NCBI GenBank assembly: GCA_025881525.1
Contig: GCA_025881525.1_4849.1
Length of the DNA: 24,537 nt
Direction: 5' to 3' (one strand)
Source of the DNA: a phage
Position 1 is the stretch's first letter. Each line of letters begins with the position of its first letter. The position numbers were made by a program, and so were the translations under genes. The notes beneath the pieces were generated by a model. The model ran no database searches. It saw only the letters and a list, made by a program, of their open reading frames with translations, and was not told the origin of the DNA. Below are positions 135 through 22,310 of the stretch, in pieces.

Positions 135-163
135 TTGACGTAGAATCGCAGCTGATGTAGATT
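135..163 (+). promoter_or_regulatory. sigma70-like promoter candidate TTGACG-17bp-TAGATT for early plus-strand block
   Basis: TTGACG 135-140, 17 bp spacer, TAGATT 158-163; about 30 bp upstream of first ATG; overlaps conserved TTGACGTAGAAT motif. Confidence 0.4.
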
Positions 164-2969: not shown

Positions 2970-3128
2970 ATGATGCTTAAGCTAGCCCTCTCAAATATGG
3001 CGCTCGCAATGTTGATGTTTATCGCTGGCGGGGCTTCAGGAGCCGCCGCTTTCGCGATATGGGGATGCATGTTCATGCTGACGGCAACAATAATTACTAT
3101 TGTTGGAACTTCGCGTTATGGCTCGTAA
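2970..3128 (+). CDS. hypothetical small membrane peptide (52 aa)
   Basis: Translation MMLKLALSNMALAMLMFIAGGASGAAAFAIWGCMFMLTATIITIVGTSRYGS; overlaps terminase start. Confidence 0.3.
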   Translation: MMLKLALSNMALAMLMFIAGGASGAAAFAIWGCMFMLTATIITIVGTSRYGS

Positions 3129-4542
3129 ACGCCTGTCCGCTCTGGCAATCGAAAAGCTGGAAGCGCAGATTGATGACGCGATGACAGATGTTGCAGAGTC
3201 AGCTATCTTTGGCATCTGCGATATGCAGAAGAACGTCATAAAGCGGTTAAGGATGACTGCCACTGGCGTTGATGACGTGACCAATGCAACAACTCATGCT
3301 GACCACCTTATTCCGGCAAAACTTGAGAGACTGCTTTACCCCAAACGATTCAAGTTTGTCTACGGTGGCCGTGGGTCAGGGAAAACGAGAACGATTATCA
3401 CCATCCTTACTGAGCGCGCAAGGTTTCGACCTGACCGCTTTGCATGCTTTCGTGAGATTCAGCAATCCATTGAGGATTCAAGCTATCAGGAGCTTGTTGA
3501 TGAGATAGCCCGCAAGGGTGAATCGGCAGAGTTCCGTGTTATCAACAACGAGATAACACACAAGAAGACCAAAGCTAAATTTCGCTTTAAGGGTCTGTAT
3601 CGCAACCAGACTACGGTTAAAGGTTTTGCTGGCATCACCGTAGGCTGGGTAGAGGAAGCTGAGAACGTCAGCCAGACAAGCTGGGATATTCTTGTGCCTA
3701 CCATCCGTGCCGCCAATTCCGAACTGTGGTGTTCATTCAACCCCAACAAGGAAACAGACCCAACATGGAAAAACTGGATTGCCCCCTATCACTCACAGAT
3801 GGTTGATGGCATATTCGAAAATGATGAAATTCTGATTATCGAATGTAACTATTCAGACAACCCGTGGTTCTGGGATACGCCTCTGCCATCCGCTATGGAG
3901 CAAATGAAGCGCGTCGATTTCGACCGCTACATGTGGATATGGGAAGGCAAATTTAATAAACGCAGCGACGAGCAGGTCTTCGGCGGCAAATGGCGCATTG
4001 ATAACTTTGAGGTTAAACCTGAATGGCATGGCCCATACTTCGGGATGGACTTCGGATTCTCCACGGATCCTACCGCGATGGTTGAGGTTTATATCGAAGA
4101 GTTACCGGGTGGGCGGCGCAACATTTATATTAATCGCGAGTACGGCAAAGTTGGTCTTGAGATTACCGATACACCAGCCGCGATGGAGCAATCATTTCCG
4201 ATGGCTAAGCGCGCACGATGGTATGCCGACTGTGCGCGCCCAGAAACCATCAGTCACATCAAGCGCTCTGGATTTGATATTCACCCGTGCACAAAATGGC
4301 CAGGGAGTGTTGAGGATGGCGTAACGTGGCTGCGTGGGTGCGACAGCATCATCATCCACAATCGATGCAAGGAAATGCAGAATGAAGCGACAATGTACAG
4401 CTACAAGGTTGATAAACTGACTGGGAACGTGCTGACTGATATTGTTGATGCATTTAACCACTTCTGGGATGCAGTTCGCTACGCACTTAATGACCATATC
4501 GTTCAGCGTGGCAGTGGAATGCTCATCCGGCGCAGGCGATAA
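3118..4542 (+). CDS. terminase large subunit
   Basis: Walker A motif FVYGGRGSGKT near N-terminus, C-terminal nuclease-like region, about 475 aa; ORF track starts at TTG 3100, ATG 3118 preferred. Confidence 0.9.
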   Translation: MARKRLSALAIEKLEAQIDDAMTDVAESAIFGICDMQKNVIKRLRMTATGVDDVTNATTHADHLIPAKLERLLYPKRFKFVYGGRGSGKTRTIITILTERARFRPDRFACFREIQQSIEDSSYQELVDEIARKGESAEFRVINNEITHKKTKAKFRFKGLYRNQTTVKGFAGITVGWVEEAENVSQTSWDILVPTIRAANSELWCSFNPNKETDPTWKNWIAPYHSQMVDGIFENDEILIIECNYSDNPWFWDTPLPSAMEQMKRVDFDRYMWIWEGKFNKRSDEQVFGGKWRIDNFEVKPEWHGPYFGMDFGFSTDPTAMVEVYIEELPGGRRNIYINREYGKVGLEITDTPAAMEQSFPMAKRARWYADCARPETISHIKRSGFDIHPCTKWPGSVEDGVTWLRGCDSIIIHNRCKEMQNEATMYSYKVDKLTGNVLTDIVDAFNHFWDAVRYALNDHIVQRGSGMLIRRRR

Positions 4543-4558
4543 ATCCGCATCGCCACAC

Positions 4559-4590
4559 TTGACCAATCTACACCGAGCGCATAGTATAAT
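4559..4590 (+). promoter_or_regulatory. promoter-like element TTGACC then TAGTAT (17 bp spacer) or TATAAT (20 bp spacer)
   Basis: Read directly; shares gcatagtat...tctacatca with the minus-strand reading of the 9781-9800 region. Confidence 0.3.
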
Positions 4591-4618
4591 CTACATCAGG
4601 CTTACCGGAGATATCACT

Positions 4619-4825
4619 ATGCGCAGCTATGCAGGATTTACACAGGAGGAAAAAGAGCAGGTCTATTCACTGGCGCGGGCTGGCGTGCCTGATGATGTGA
4701 TTTGCCGTAGGTATGACATCGACGAGGATTTCCTGCTGCGCGTTATTGATGATGTTTTCGTTAACCTGCAAGAGAAACGCGGGTACAAGGGTATCTGCTG
4801 CAAGAATGATTTTTTGAGAGGGTGA
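4619..4825 (+). CDS. hypothetical protein (68 aa)
   Basis: ORF track 4442-4825; ATG 4619 with GGAG RBS preferred since upstream part overlaps terminase. Confidence 0.5.
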   Translation: MRSYAGFTQEEKEQVYSLARAGVPDDVICRRYDIDEDFLLRVIDDVFVNLQEKRGYKGICCKNDFLRG

Positions 4826-4829
4826 AAAC

Positions 4830-5027
4830 ATGAAAAGCATAATGAAAAGAATGGTCCGGGCATATGATAAAGAACTGTGCGTATTCAGAGATATGCGTAA
4901 TAACAAGAAAAAGCGCAGAGCTACGGCGCGCCAGTTAGCATCATATTACGATGAGGACGTTGCGATTGAATGCCAGGAGGATGCCGATGAATTTGCTCGT
5001 GATGATATTTACTATATGGTTAACTGA
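4830..5027 (+). CDS. hypothetical basic protein (65 aa)
   Basis: ORF with GAGAGGGTG RBS. Confidence 0.5.
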   Translation: MKSIMKRMVRAYDKELCVFRDMRNNKKKRRATARQLASYYDEDVAIECQEDADEFARDDIYYMVN

Positions 5028-5044
5028 TTTTGAGAGGGTGATGG

Positions 5045-5215
5045 ATGATTGTTATTGAAGACGAAACAAAAACGCCAATGTGCACGATAGCGATTGACTT
5101 TAACTCTGACCCTATGATCACTCAGGGTCATGACACTATTATTATTGACAAACATCAAGCAGCACAGCTAATCGAAGTCCTGCAACGCTGGGTTAATGGT
5201 GAGGAGATTGAGTGA
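5045..5215 (+). CDS. hypothetical protein (56 aa)
   Basis: GAGAGGGTG RBS (13-nt duplicate of the RBS region at 4812-4824); below ORF-track cutoff; TGATG overlap with next gene. Confidence 0.4.
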   Translation: MIVIEDETKTPMCTIAIDFNSDPMITQGHDTIIIDKHQAAQLIEVLQRWVNGEEIE

Positions 5216-5400
5216 TGAGCGTTTATTTTATTCATGCTGAAGTTATGTGGGCTGGTGATACCATCAAGAAGATTTCATGTATGGCCTCTACAAGTAATGC
5301 CATTGAAGCGTTTAACTCATTTATGATTTGCAGTGAGGTTAATGAGTTTAAATCTGGCGGGTATGATGTTGTCATTGATAAACTAGAAAAGGTAGAGTGA
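5215..5400 (+). CDS. hypothetical protein (61 aa)
   Basis: ORF track 5212-5400 (GTG); ATG 5215 with GGTGAGGAG RBS preferred. Confidence 0.5.
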   Translation: MSVYFIHAEVMWAGDTIKKISCMASTSNAIEAFNSFMICSEVNEFKSGGYDVVIDKLEKVE

Positions 5401-5876
5401 TGATTGATTGGGTATCTTTATTTGATTATGATGGAGTGTCTTTGGTGTGGAAGCATGGAAGGGGAGGTGTTTCCGTTGGCAGCATTGCGGGAACGGTTAA
5501 TGCTGGCGGGTACATTCAACTCAAAGCTAACGGAAGATTTTATTATGCCCACAGAATTATATGGGAAATGCATAACGGGCAAATACCTGACGACATGGAG
5601 ATTGATCATATAAACCACAACAAGGCGGACAACAGGATTGAGAATTTGCGTCTTGTTCGACACAAAACTAACACTAAAAACGCGCCTAAATACAAAAATA
5701 ACACCAGCGGCGTTACTGGTGTGAGTTGGTATAAGAGAGATAAAAAATGGCTAGCACAAATAATGGTTGATGGCAATTACATACGTCTTGGTCTTTTTGA
5801 TAATTTCGAAGCAGCAGTCGCCGTAAGAAAGGAAGCAGAACTAAGGTATGGATTTCACAAGAACCACGGCACTTGA
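5400..5876 (+). CDS. HNH homing endonuclease with AP2-type DNA-binding domain
   Basis: HNH motif EIDHINHNKADNRIENLRLV followed by AP2-like GVTGVSWYKRDKKWLAQIMVDGNYIRLGLFDNFEAAVAVRKEAE. Confidence 0.85.
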   Translation: MIDWVSLFDYDGVSLVWKHGRGGVSVGSIAGTVNAGGYIQLKANGRFYYAHRIIWEMHNGQIPDDMEIDHINHNKADNRIENLRLVRHKTNTKNAPKYKNNTSGVTGVSWYKRDKKWLAQIMVDGNYIRLGLFDNFEAAVAVRKEAELRYGFHKNHGT

Positions 5877-5885
5877 TGATATAAT
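5877..5885 (+). promoter_or_regulatory. extended -10 promoter element TGATATAAT upstream of portal gene
   Basis: Perfect TGnTATAAT directly after HNH stop codon, about 30 bp before portal ATG. Confidence 0.35.
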
Positions 5886-5913
5886 GACCCTTGCAGAAAT
5901 GTGAGGGTTTTTT

Positions 5914-7329
5914 ATGAGCGACAAAATCGCAGTATTGAATGCGTACATTAAGGATAGAGTGGCGAACAACAACCGGGCGATTCAGCAACAGCGGCTTTGT
6001 GCTGGCGGGAAGAATCTTGACCAGAAGCACGATCGTCTCTGGACGGAGTGCGGGTACCCACAGGAAATCACTGCCGAGATGTTCCGCTATGCCTATGAGC
6101 GACACCCAGCCGCCGCCGCTGGCATTAACCGCATTATTAATAAATGCTGGCAGAAATACCCTGAAGTGGTAGAAGATGGCGAGGATGACAAGAATTCTAC
6201 ACCGTGGGAGTTGTCCATCAACGACATGATGAAGCGTGCTTATCCGTTCATCAAAGAGGCTGACAAGCGCAACGCCATCAACCGCTATTCCGCTGTTATC
6301 CTGCAAATCCGTGACGGCAAGCAATGGAGTGAGCCAGTAGACATCACCAAAACCCGCCGCATTAAAGATAAATCCATTGTTCGATTCATTCCGGTATGGG
6401 AAGAACAACTACGAGTCAGCGCATGGAATAATGACGAAACCAGCGAAGACTACGGAATGCCAGAGATGTACGAATACCAGGAAAGCGCCGTAGAGGATTT
6501 CGATAGCGACGGAAAGCCTGAACGTTCCGTGCAGATTCATCCTGACCGCATCATTATTCTGGCTGAGGGTAGTTTTGATGGCAGCATGTTCAGCGGCATC
6601 CCAATGTTGCGTGCTGGCTACAACAGTCTTATCGACATGGCTAAAGTTTCAGGAAGTTCTGCGGAAGGCTTCCTGAAGAATGCAAGCCGACAACTGGCTG
6701 TTAACTACACGAAGGATAACGTAACGCCAGCAAGCCTCGCACAGTCGATGGGTGTCGATATTGAAGAACTAACCGACATCATGAATGAGAACATCGAAGC
6801 GCTGAACTCAGGTATCGACGCCGCTATGTTCACAATGGGAGCTGATGCAAAAGTTCTCGCTGTGACGCCAGCCGACCCGAAACCAACATGGGAAGTAGCC
6901 GCCAACCAGTTCGCTGCATCAATGGCGCTTCCGTTCACCGTCATCTTTGGTCAGCAAACCGGGCGCCTTGCAAGCGATGAGGACAAGATGCAGGAGGCGA
7001 TGACTGCCAAGCAGCGCCGAGAAACATGGGTTGATTATGTCATCTCAATGTTCGTTGAGCGCATGATTCAGTTCGGCATTGTCGATAAAGCACCGGCAAA
7101 TGGCTACAAGGTTAAGTGGGATGACCTGCTTGCCCCATCTGAACTGGATAAAGCTGAATTGCTGTCTAAGCTCGCCACTGCCAACAAGTCGTTCTTTGAT
7201 GCTGGTCAATCTGCGTTGCTGACCGTCGATGAAGCTCGCGGCATGGTTGGCATGGAGCCGATTGAACTTGACGAGAGTTATCGCGAAGACATGCCACCGG
7301 AAGATGAAAATGAAGATATTCCGGTTTAA
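5914..7329 (+). CDS. portal protein (putative)
   Basis: 471 aa, acidic C-terminus, sits between terminase and Mu F-like gene; GAGGG RBS; assignment by size and synteny. Confidence 0.7.
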
Positions 7330-8260
7330 CGCAAGGCTTCCACAGCCGCGCATATCGCAGAGTCTGACTGACCCGTTAGGAGCTGCAACTCGCCTGTCGA
7401 AGATGGACAAGGTGATAACGCGCAAATACAAACAACTAAGGACTCGTGCGCTTGAGTTGTTTCGATCTATTCCTCATAGTCAGGCTAACGCAGAATCGAG
7501 CGGCCTGTATTTCTACGATTTCAGCAGCGCGCGAGCTGCCACTTTCATGGATGAGCTACAGGCGCTGATTGACGAGATTCTGCTTGAAGGTGATGATTTC
7601 GGTCACGGCAGAATGTGGGCCAATGTGTTCATCGGTGATGCATACCAGGCTGGAACGCAGAAGGCCAACTCAGAGCTGTCAAGTCTTTCTCCGGTTTATG
7701 CTGAGCAAAGACCTATTGCTGCGATACTCTACAGTGAGCCTTACCTGAATCGACTCCAACTGGCTTATACGCAGGGATATTCAGACTGGCGCGGATTGAG
7801 TGATTATTCCCGCCAGCAACTGGCATCTGTCATTATGGAAGGCATTGCCCGTGGTGCTAATCCTCGCGATGTTGAAGCTGACATTGTTAAGCGTTTGGAT
7901 GTGTCACATAGTTACGCGAAACAGATAGCGCAAACCGAAATCACCGGAACGCTCAGGCAGGCTAACAGGCGAGAAGTTATTGAGGCGCGCGAAGAGTTAG
8001 GTATTGAAACGGTGATGCTGTGGCAGTCGGCATTAATGCGCACAACCCGCCAGACGCACGGGTCTAAACATGGACGGTTTTTTACTCCAGAGCAGATTGA
8101 TGATTTCTACTCTCGTGATGGCAATAAATATAATTGTCACTGCGCACAGGTACCAACACTGCTAATGGATGGCAAGCCAGTCATTCTTGAGTCATCGCAG
8201 GAAAGGCTCGATAAGCAGCGCGAGGCGTGGCAGGCGAGCAATAAAAAAGCCACCAAGTAG
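7310..8260 (+). CDS. head morphogenesis protein, Mu F-like / SPP1 gp7 family
   Basis: C-terminal conserved region [15 protein letters not shown] and YNCHCA typical of the family; ORF track start 7229 lies inside portal, ATG 7304/7310 preferred. Confidence 0.8.
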
Positions 8261-8275
8261 GTGGCTTTATATTAT
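8241..8275. terminator. bidirectional hairpin terminator (AGCCACC-aagta-GGTGGCT) with A-run upstream and T-rich tract downstream
   Basis: Read directly; convergent transcription units meet here; Mu F-like gene stop codon lies in the loop. Confidence 0.55.
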
Positions 8276-9780: not shown

Positions 9781-9836
9781 ATGTAGATACTATGCACCAC
9801 CACTCAATCTACGTCAACAGTCATTGTGATAGAATT
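9781..9836. promoter_or_regulatory. divergent promoter region: TTGACG -35 (minus, 9812-9817) and extended -10 TGaTAGAAT (plus, 9827-9835), built around the 15-mer AATCTACGTCAACAG
   Basis: Read directly; located between divergently oriented gene blocks. Confidence 0.45.
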
Positions 9837-10830: not shown

Positions 10831-11302
10831 ATACTGGCGACCGCTGGCAATTATTATAATTGCTGCTGCTGGTGCGTTGTGGGTGCGTGGCGAAATTATC
10901 AGCTACGGCGACCAGCGATACGCAGAAGGCAAAGCTCAAGCAATCGCAGACCAGAAGGCCGCAGACGAACAAGAGGAGCAACGACGCAATGCAGAACTGC
11001 AAAAAATTCAGGCCGACGCACAGCAAAGAATTGATGCTGCGCGCAATGATGCTGTTAATGCTGCCGCTAAGTCTGGCAGGTTGCAGCAACAACTCACCAG
11101 TATCCGCAAGCAGCTCGTCGGATATTTCACCTCTGAGTCCATTGGCAACCCAGCCGCAGAAACCGGAGTTTTGCTTGGAGACGTGCTCAGCAAATCTGTC
11201 GAAAGAAATCGACAACTGGCAGATTATGCTGACAGGGCGAGAGAAGCGGGATTAGCGTGTGAGGCGCAGTACAATTCGCTGCGTAATAAAAAAGCCCCGT
11301 AA
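10811..11302 (+). CDS. Rz: i-spanin (Rz-like)
   Basis: N-terminal TM (LAIIIIAAAGALWV) followed by charged coiled-coil periplasmic domain; GGAGG RBS; hosts an embedded lipoprotein ORF. Confidence 0.7.
   Translation: MMSILAKYWRPLAIIIIAAAGALWVRGEIISYGDQRYAEGKAQAIADQKAADEQEEQRRNAELQKIQADAQQRIDAARNDAVNAAAKSGRLQQQLTSIRKQLVGYFTSESIGNPAAETGVLLGDVLSKSVERNRQLADYADRAREAGLACEAQYNSLRNKKAP
11034..11255 (+). CDS. Rz1: o-spanin (Rz1-like), embedded in +1 frame within Rz
   Basis: Lipoprotein signal with lipobox MLRAMMLLMLPLSLAG-C, Pro/Ser-rich mature part; fully nested in i-spanin gene. Confidence 0.6.
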   Translation: MLRAMMLLMLPLSLAGCSNNSPVSASSSSDISPLSPLATQPQKPEFCLETCSANLSKEIDNWQIMLTGREKRD

Positions 11303-11318
11303 TGGGGCTTGTGTTTAA
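11285..11318. terminator. bidirectional hairpin terminator (GCCCC-gtaat-GGGGC) flanked by A-run and T-rich tract
   Basis: Read directly; spanin stop codon in loop; convergent gene blocks meet here. Confidence 0.6.
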
Positions 11319-12519: not shown

Positions 12520-12575
12520 TATTGACGAATCTACGTCACTTAGTCAATACTGTTGGTGTAGAATGATTCTACCAC
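12520..12575. promoter_or_regulatory. divergent regulatory region with TTGACG, AATCTACGTCA motif, inverted repeat TGACG-N6-CGTCA and 15-bp palindrome GTAGAATgATTCTAC (12558-12572)
   Basis: Read directly; between divergently transcribed blocks. Confidence 0.4.
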
Positions 12576-22249: not shown

Positions 22250-22310
22250 TTTCTACGTCACTAACTATAAACACGCCATCAATCTACGTCAACAGGAATA
22301 TGCTAAAATC
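22250..22310. promoter_or_regulatory. divergent promoter region with two direct copies of TCTACGTCA (22252-22260, 22283-22291); minus: TTGACG-17-TATAGT; plus: extended -10 TGcTAAAAT (22301-22309)
   Basis: Read directly; 15-mer AATCTACGTCAACAG identical to the copy at 9806-9820. Confidence 0.45.

Follow-up and report, generated by a model that had tools for sequence, protein, structure and literature searches.

A probable recombinational hot spot between the terminase and portal genes of a Swiduovirus-like siphophage ends in an HNH-AP2 endonuclease gene

Why should a row of small genes and an endonuclease gene lie between the genes for the terminase large subunit (TerL) and the portal protein of a phage? 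We asked this of a 24,537-nucleotide stretch of phage DNA (contig GCA_025881525.1_4849.1; the window, hereafter), in which four small open reading frames (ORF1 to ORF4, 4619-5400) and an AP2-HNH endonuclease gene stand between the two. The original prediction, made from the letters of the sequence, took terminase and portal genes to be normally adjacent, and proposed that the endonuclease could be a packaging cofactor and the small genes moron-like cargo. Our comparison with relatives leads to a different answer: the interval is most probably a recombinational hot spot, a hypervariable islet of small accessory genes whose last member codes for a free-standing HNH-AP2 homing endonuclease. As such, it is a well-documented example of a type of phage genome mosaicism that is already known.

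The window comes from a virulent-type siphophage genome that is Swiduovirus-like. Among deposited phages, those nearest to it are Escherichia phage swi2 (Swiduovirus; 91% identity at 75% coverage), C1, DS8, SeSz-2 (Skatevirus), and Vi II-E1 (Macdonaldcampvirus). Outside the islet, on its left, lies the TerL gene (3118-4542, + strand), whose bounds we set by comparison with relatives and whose product matches Pfam Terminase_3 (E 5e-35) and Terminase_3C; to the right lies the portal gene (5914-7329, + strand; Pfam Phage_portal_3, E 1.4e-20). The ORF layout, the Pfam matches, and the predicted fold of the endonuclease confirm that four small ORFs and an AP2-HNH endonuclease gene occupy the space between them: ORF1 (4619-4825, 68 amino acids), ORF2 (4830-5027, 65 amino acids), ORF3 (5045-5215, 56 amino acids), ORF4 (from ATG at 5215 or GTG at 5212 to 5400, 61 amino acids), and the free-standing HNH_3+AP2 endonuclease (from ATG at 5400 or GTG at 5397 to 5876, 158 amino acids). 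From ORF1 through the endonuclease, all genes are on the + strand, with gaps of 4-17 nt or TGATG overlaps, and therefore form one translationally coupled block. There are no terminator-like sites on the + strand between 4542 and 5886, and a search of 4300-6200 against Rfam returned zero RNA families. Even at E <= 10, Pfam has nothing for ORF1, ORF2, or ORF4 and only a sub-threshold DUF7189 match for ORF3; all four ORFs belong to PHROGs families of unknown function.

We compared this interval across 11 GenBank relatives and about 55 contigs from IMG/VR, ENA, and Logan, a set that spans Swiduovirus, Skatevirus, and Macdonaldcampvirus. The supposition that terminase and portal genes are normally adjacent fails for this lineage; they adjoin in 0 of about 60 loci, and the gap between them measures about 0.5-2.7 kb. 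Each relative has 2 to about 10 small ORFs in the gap, and the gene content differs in nearly all of them, which supports the notion of variable accessory DNA. The two ends of the interval are constant. On the left, these are an 81-nt upstream region and ORF1 (4538-4825 together), the latter always the first + strand gene; on the right, the motif TGnTATAAT leads at once into a hairpin and a T-run, after which the portal gene begins. Homology among relatives collapses left of TGnTATAAT and begins exactly at the motif. Likewise, the 14-mer that ends ORF1, shared by about 50 loci, precedes at least 12 different second genes across phages. Given these constant flanks and differing interior genes, the interval is an islet with fixed anchors and a shuffled interior.

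The interior of the islet in the window is itself a mosaic. ORF1 is 93-95% identical at the nucleotide level to that of all enteric relatives, ORF2 is missing at 11 loci, ORF3 is about 90% identical in nucleotides to SeSz-2, ORF4 is 93% identical in nucleotides to ZCEC08, and the endonuclease has 50% amino acid identity to that of Seszw_1 at the same place. The TerL gene has 82-92% nucleotide identity to its counterparts across 3118-4543. We propose that islet genes would be exchanged or inserted at gene boundaries, with crossovers at short conserved junctions of ribosome binding site (RBS) and stop codon. This arrangement recalls the hyperplastic regions of T4-type phages, where small genes are shuffled at conserved boundaries, for example as PeSL (promoter/stem-loop) cassettes. 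PeSL regions resemble the islet in their tiny ORFs of unknown function, in contents that vary between close relatives, and in exchange at short conserved junctions. Unlike them, the islet has RBS/stop overlaps and the 14-nt end of ORF1 as its junctions, and a single promoter-like element on the left.

One of these exchanges has left a footprint at ORF2. The original prediction reported a duplicated 13-nt RBS region; the repeat is exact, but it is 14 nt long, and its second copy had been placed one position off. The two copies of TTTTGAGAGGGTGA lie at 4812-4825, where the sequence makes up the last codons and the stop of ORF1 as well as the RBS of the next gene, and at 5028-5041. Phage INT55 has the empty site: there, the ORF1 end TTTTGAGAGGGTGA is joined straight to ORF3 (locus L012, 2769-2790). 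Relative to this joint, the window has an excess of 216 bp (4826-5041) made up of ORF2 and the second 14-mer, and the repeat is therefore the footprint of an insertion. The insertion of ORF2 would have duplicated the 14-nt ORF1 end such that ORF2 and ORF3 both keep an RBS. Just 8 phage records hold an ORF2 homologue (49-68% amino acid identity), and each belongs to another phage group, such as Sashavirus, with about 67% identity, or a lambdoid phage; the order ORF1-ORF2-ORF3 is shared with one IMG/VR contig (L020, 92.5% nucleotide identity).

ORF2 is the sole gene here that fits inserted cargo. Its only flanks are the two copies of the 14-nt RBS/stop junction; since neither a promoter nor a terminator belongs to it, it is not a classical moron. 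ORF3 belongs to phrog_13627, with homologues of 46-95% amino acid identity at the same place in relatives, and is thus one of the recurring small-gene families of the islet. So too is ORF4 (phrog_26739), which has 95% amino acid identity to its counterpart in ZCEC08 and 39-61% to those of other relatives. ORF4 is translationally coupled at both ends through TGATG overlaps, and the repeat GAGTGATGA marks both of its ends (5205-5218 and 5390-5403).

We next consider the endonuclease at the right end of the islet. It matches Pfam HNH_3 (PF13392) with 75.6 bits against a cut-off of 24.8 and phrog_99, an HNH endonuclease family, with E 2e-66; a match to Pfam AP2 (26 bits) falls under the 33.3 cut-off. 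A sequence search of the PDB gave a marginal match to I-HmuI only (E 0.068), so a structure model and a fold search were needed. In the AlphaFold model, built on 45 homologues (pLDDT 87), the best PDB fold match is I-HmuI (1U3E; probability 0.99, E 3e-3), with a beta-beta-alpha-Me fold, and residues ~104-150 match plant AP2/ERF domains (WRI1, TEM1, AtERF1) with a root-mean-square deviation of 1.2-1.4 A and a probability of ~1.0. Among the 45 homologues, H70, N82, N91, and N94 are invariant and D69 is nearly so. The protein has zero cysteines in its 158 amino acids and therefore lacks a [CxxC]2 zinc site. As modeled, it is a free-standing I-HmuI-like homing endonuclease with a C-terminal AP2 domain as a separate DNA-binding module. 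Proteins related to it turn up in 3857 phage records, often several to a genome and as many as 6, and are usually annotated as homing endonucleases. Only two sequences come close to the allele in the window (98% and 87%), each found solely in metagenome or Logan assemblies; the remaining homologues reach at most about 56-57% amino acid identity over the full length.

The distribution of the endonuclease gene is sporadic. In about 190 related records, an HNH gene is present at this site in only about 6 natural phages: Seszw_1/seszw, LPST49, and three Klebsiella phages; among IMG/VR relatives, it is present in 2 of 38, and overall in about 5% of relatives. The 98% allele occurs on 15 metagenomic contigs, always 37 nt upstream of the portal gene and in any upstream context, including one contig (L023) with an unrelated Terminase_6 TerL. 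In the Klebsiella phage RSU-F4K5, the HNH gene (L010, 2974-3450) has an in-frame stop at codon 115, before the AP2 domain; either this copy is decaying or the stop is a sequencing error.

Presence of the gene is perfectly linked to the sequence beside it. All natural loci with the HNH gene (HNH+) share the junction TGATGATATAATGACCCTTrCAGAAATGTGAGGGTTTTTTATG and a portal beginning MSDKIAxLNAYI. In contrast, all loci that lack it (HNH-; about 45) have CCATGnTATAAT, a different hairpin, ATTGGTGACATATG, and a portal beginning MSKIDALNAYIR (MSKIDA...). This linkage between HNH presence and junction type is without exception across about 65 loci. When phages with HNH proteins of 50% identity and portals of about 66% identity are compared, their HNH+ junctions are ~96% identical. 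In the window, the first 45 nt of the portal gene (5914-5958, 15 amino acids) are about 96% identical to those of other HNH+ phages and about 57% identical to the nearest HNH- portal, to which the remainder of the gene has about 92% identity; the switch falls at ~5953-5959, portal nt 39-45. Counting that of the window, at least four portal backbones show this pattern: between an HNH+ portal and its HNH- counterpart, identity is 89-96.5% outside the 5' tract and only 50-60% within it. These tracts come in two lengths: ~45 nt of the portal gene in the window, L023, L025, and L031, and ~150 nt in Seszw_1, LPST49, L016, and L069.

Taken together, the diverged junction and the recoded portal 5' end look like a co-conversion tract. 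Indeed, homing by free-standing phage HNH endonucleases co-converts flanking DNA (PMC2790892, PMC2988022). During co-infection, the HNH protein would nick or cut the genome of an HNH-less relative in or close to the part that holds the portal promoter and the 5' end of the coding sequence. With the HNH+ genome as template, repair would then bring in the HNH gene, a junction that resists cleavage, and 45 or 150 nt from the start of the portal gene. In its own genome, the gene would be co-transcribed and translationally coupled with the cassette and dispensable for packaging. The last of these points has a counterpart in a relative: in the seszw genome-reduction series (PMC9825161), many viable mutants lack exactly the HNH coding sequence, as we read from the deposited mutant genomes, and these deletions retain TGATATAAT, the hairpin, and the portal gene.

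The right anchor of the islet is the element that these deletions spare. Abutting the HNH stop is the extended -10-like sequence TGATATAAT (5877-5885, + strand), a candidate promoter for the portal and structural genes. The original prediction had this element following the HNH stop, as it does, and counted it among elements belonging to the cassette; it is instead a lineage-wide portal element, present with or without the HNH gene. The 8 specified bases of TGnTATAAT are invariant in 67 loci representing 20 sequence variants, HNH+ and HNH- alike, while the sequence upstream and the stem downstream vary. Directly after it comes a feature missed in the earlier reading, a terminator-like hairpin with a 10-bp stem, GACCCTTGCA-GAAA-TGTGAGGGTT, and a T-run (5886-5913, + strand; -13.4 to -14.5 kcal/mol, z = -4.1); the portal RBS (GAGGG) lies in its 3' arm. 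In relatives, another hairpin occupies this place, and two-sided changes preserve its stem; the variants are CCCATC/GATGGG, CCCTC/GAGGG, and CCCC/GGGG, with a longer GNRA hairpin in the HNH+ phages. The predicted start, 6-8 nt past the -10, lies inside the stem, so RNA made from this promoter would lack the terminator hairpin. It is therefore plausible, going by these predictions, that the -10 and the hairpin act as an insulator: RNA from the cassette would stop at the hairpin, and portal RNA would escape it.

The left anchor begins just before the TerL stop. The region upstream of ORF1 (4538-4618, + strand) is near-invariant in 8 enteric relatives, and its conservation begins at GATAAATCC regardless of what lies upstream. 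It holds a promoter-like element, P1, with a -35 TTGACC (4559-4564), a -10 TAGTAT (4582-4587) overlapping a TATAAT (4585-4590), and the RBS GGAG (4607-4610). The original prediction drew a promoter-like element at 4559-4590; its motifs are present and conserved in the lineage, but the perfect TATAAT at 4585-4590 stands 20 nt from TTGACC, too long a spacer for sigma-70, and we rejected it as the primary -10. TAGTAT is favored because its 17-nt spacer (9/12 matches with TTGACC) fits better. Since promoter motif counts in the window do not exceed those in shuffled sequences, they cannot support a promoter claim, and we relied on conservation. Since conservation extends over the entire module and sigma-70-like motifs are not enriched, P1 is no more than a candidate promoter; the case is stronger for the portal-upstream element.

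P1 also contains two copies of AATCTACNNC (mostly AATCTACGTCAA), at 4565-4574 and 4588-4597. The window has 6 copies of this motif where 0.44 would be expected, and none of 100 shuffled sequences has as many. The other copies lie at 154-163 (- strand), 9806-9815, 12528-12537, and 22281-22290. Those at 9806 and 22281 are 11-12 nt upstream of an extended -10 (TGATAGAAT and TGCTAAAAT) and of an RBS and ATG, and the copy at 154 on the - strand is 11 nt upstream of the A/T-rich hexamer TAAAAA; the sites precede gene blocks. Klebsiella phage 6991 has the motif too, ahead of its ORF1 homologue. This pattern suggests that AATCTACGTCAA may be a lineage-specific promoter box used in place of a -35, comparable to the MotA-box promoters of T4. 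A 9-bp inverted repeat, GCGCATAGT...ACTATGCGC (4577-4624, + strand), brackets the P1 -10 and the ATG of ORF1, with an RNA fold of -16.9 kcal/mol (z = -2.6).

ORF1 itself is a core gene (phrog_13301, E 1e-47, function unknown). It was found in all relatives examined, with 93-100% amino acid identity in enteric phages and 50-53% in Klebsiella phages, and it is kept in the smallest seszw mutant (37.7 kb). The exact protein is found on 60 contigs, with cluster names that derive from the seszw mutant genomes. Its AlphaFold model has three helices (pLDDT 79), and the top fold matches are all helix-turn-helix (HTH) domains (NarL, GerE, CENP-B, ArdK, IstA), so that ORF1 is a putative small HTH DNA-binding protein; a regulatory role is no more than a reasonable guess. 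The conserved start is the ATG at 4619, with GGAG 8 nt upstream. We rejected a longer ORF (4442-4825; annotated in VIP0003 and as seszw gene 63), the N-terminal extension of which is unconserved and overlaps TerL.

What part might the endonuclease play other than homing? If it were a terminase cofactor required for maturation or packaging, its place near the TerL and portal genes would be expected. Packaging HNH proteins such as HK97 gp74, the N.phiGamma group, the staphylococcal cos-phage HNH, and Skunavirus HrdP share this vicinity and the HNH-superfamily fold with the protein in the window, and they are conserved and essential where tested (PMC12967558). These proteins, however, have a [CxxC]2/CxxH zinc site and are encoded beside cos, upstream of TerS-TerL-portal (PMC3592412, Table 2). 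The protein in the window belongs to another Pfam family (HNH_3+AP2, I-HmuI-like) and has no CxxC or CxxH motif, and its gene lies downstream of TerL. It is missing in about 95% of relatives, even though their TerL genes are 82-92% identical and their portals about 90% identical to those in the window; the same allele sits beside the unrelated Terminase_6 TerL of L023; the counterpart at the same site in seszw can be deleted exactly; and the copy in RSU-F4K5 is broken by a stop. Family, position, distribution, the seszw deletion, and the stop codon therefore make the packaging role offered by the original prediction very unlikely. The suggestion that the small ORFs are morons, independent units with their own promoter and terminator whose cargo benefits the host or lysogen, fares only slightly better and is distinctly improbable. 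In its favor, ORF2 sits between genes that are adjacent in INT55 and has homologues from unrelated phages, and a promoter-like element precedes the cassette. But no promoter/terminator pair surrounds any single ORF, ORF1 through the HNH gene form one coupled unit, ORF1 is core, and ORF3 and ORF4 recur in relatives; we met no integrase or lysogeny signal in the regions examined, where no systematic search for a lysogeny module was made. What stands of the moron idea is ORF2 as a sporadic insertion.

A closer competitor holds that the HNH gene, junction, and portal 5' end are an old haplotype moved by general homologous recombination, with a nuclease that is inactive or domesticated, for example to regulate the neighboring promoter through its AP2 domain. 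In favor of this, one flank is common to two HNH alleles that are only 50% identical, the islet shuffles at gene boundaries with no need of a nuclease, and the junction's -10, hairpin, RBS, and portal N-terminus could be held together by selection. Against this, the catalytic D-H...N...N residues are conserved in the 45 homologues, the right breakpoints fall within 45 or 150 nt of the HNH gene on at least four backbones rather than being spread along the portal, the linkage across about 65 loci is perfect, and members of the family occur sporadically, in multiple copies, across thousands of phages; we consider the old haplotype unlikely. The portal-upstream element raises a separate doubt. It may be no promoter but a terminator or an element of RNA stability or translation, with TATAAT as its A/T-rich flank and with portal expression that relies on read-through or on a promoter farther away. 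Its hairpin and T-run do match the pattern of an intrinsic terminator, the two-sided changes preserve the stem, there is no conserved -35, and the extended -10 motif occurs 2 times in the window against 0.92 expected, not above chance. Extended -10 promoters do not require a -35, however, and work without one; the 8 bases of TGnTATAAT stay fixed in 20 variants while the adjacent stem varies freely; and relatives' homology starts precisely at TGnTATAAT. A mere A/T-rich flank would not be kept so constant, and the non-promoter reading, a serious one, strikes us as rather unlikely.

Several observations weigh against the islet as a site of homing bounded by regulatory anchors. We infer homing, including the cleavage activity and target of the nuclease and the direction of transfer, from comparative patterns. 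The viable deletion concerns the seszw HNH gene, whose product has 50% amino acid identity to that in the window, and not this phage. A clean HNH-empty left side, with an ORF4-like gene followed by TGnTATAAT, is absent in about 30 loci; other small genes fill the slot at HNH- loci. The 3' flank shared by the two 50%-identical alleles could reflect an old haplotype, preserved because selection acts on the promoter, the hairpin, and the N-terminus of the portal protein, and not recent homing. At the anchors, the window has 18 sigma-70-like sites against 19.3 +/- 4.6 in shuffles, and the fold matches that would make ORF1 an HTH protein are weak (E >= 0.33). With these points in mind, we put forward the combined proposal only tentatively, as one that may well be wrong in some part: that spread of the HNH gene repeatedly overwrote the HNH-less portal element and 15-50 portal codons with a recoded allele immune to cleavage, and that the -10 and hairpin work as an insulator. 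If it is true, a selfish gene is driving the exchange of a core structural gene's control region and N-terminus in several genera, Klebsiella phages among them.

Homing by the HNH-AP2 enzyme would place it among several known systems. With I-HmuI and I-HmuII of the Bacillus phages SPO1 and SP82 (1U3E) and with mobE of T4, it shares the beta-beta-alpha-Me H-N-N core, and like the I-HmuI-type enzymes and mobE, it is small, has a separate C-terminal DNA-binding module, and occurs sporadically beside an essential gene. As with mobE, flanking sequence is replaced along with the gene, consistent with co-conversion (PMC2790892; PMC2988022). I-HmuI differs in being intron-encoded, where the gene in the window is free-standing and intergenic, and in having a helix-turn-helix where the C-terminal module here is AP2. 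Closer still in architecture are the phrog_99 HNH_3-AP2 enzymes of Drexlerviridae and other enterobacterial siphophages (about 158 amino acids, 45-57% amino acid identity), which are likewise multi-copy, sporadic, and annotated as homing endonucleases; a site 37 nt upstream of the portal gene is specific to the group of the window allele and to the Seszw-type allele. Homing endonuclease genes (HEGs) also adjoin essential genes and bound genetic exchange in ICP1 and other phages (PMC10448857; Barth, Dunham & Seed 2023). Like those boundaries, the HNH gene in the window lies beside an essential gene, where nucleotide identity switches. ICP1-type HEG islands exceed 10 kb, whereas the tract here is short (45-150 nt of portal gene plus the junction) and has one bounding HEG.

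These comparisons have practical consequences. For annotation, nearness to a terminase gene does not by itself make an HNH gene a packaging factor; packaging and homing HNH proteins can be told apart by their family, zinc motifs, position, and distribution. For engineering, the TerL-portal islet is a natural, tolerated insertion site in Swiduovirus, Skatevirus, and Macdonaldcampvirus phages, with the ORF1 end as its left anchor and TGnTATAAT as its right; ORF2 to ORF4 and the HNH gene are probably dispensable, and ORF1 (core, HTH-like) and the portal-upstream element should stay. For studies of homing in virulent enterobacterial siphophages, the islet also provides a small set of natural cases, comprising two tract lengths, at least four backbones, and one copy that appears to be decaying, and it points to a possible lineage-specific promoter motif in AATCTACGTCAA.

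Other variation was seen around TerL. In many relatives, one or two small minus-strand ORFs lie between the TerL stop and the P1/ORF1 module (for example L001 2948-3305, L002 2946-3303, and L005 3269-3421), making a second small variable spot; the window has no counterpart, and the P1/ORF1 module follows the TerL stop directly (junction 4538-4543). A second HNH_3-AP2 endonuclease gene lies directly upstream of the TerL start, and overlaps it, in several relatives (L002 205-708, L012 300-824, L024 1281-1805, and L025 621-1145). The window has no HNH gene there; in these relatives, the position is a second HEG hot spot flanking TerL.

TerL itself also varies. L023 (an ENA contig from ERZ929308) has kept the portal gene, ORF1, and the islet with the 98% HNH allele, but its TerL (1448-2755) is of the Terminase_6N/6C and not the Terminase_3 type; the packaging ATPase has been exchanged whole between families within one lineage. 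In Salmonella phage ST46 (L003 148-2667; also ST44 and ST65), TerL is annotated with 2520 nt compared to about 1425 nt, and its homology to TerL in the window starts only at window position 3379, which suggests that extra sequence, for example an intein or a fused nuclease, has been inserted in the N-terminal part.

Elements similar to those at the right anchor occur elsewhere. In L065 (IMGVR_UViG_3300029190_000002), two inserted genes, one of them an HNH gene, lie downstream of the portal gene and of the lysis genes; each is preceded by TGATATAAT and a similar leader (..TGCAGCTAG..CGAAAAG..CTGCTGCATC..), so that a promoter and leader may travel with inserted nuclease genes. Within the window, strong bidirectional terminator-like hairpins with T-runs on both strands lie at 8246-8268, following a Mu-F-like head gene, and at 11292-11310, following the lysis-gene block.

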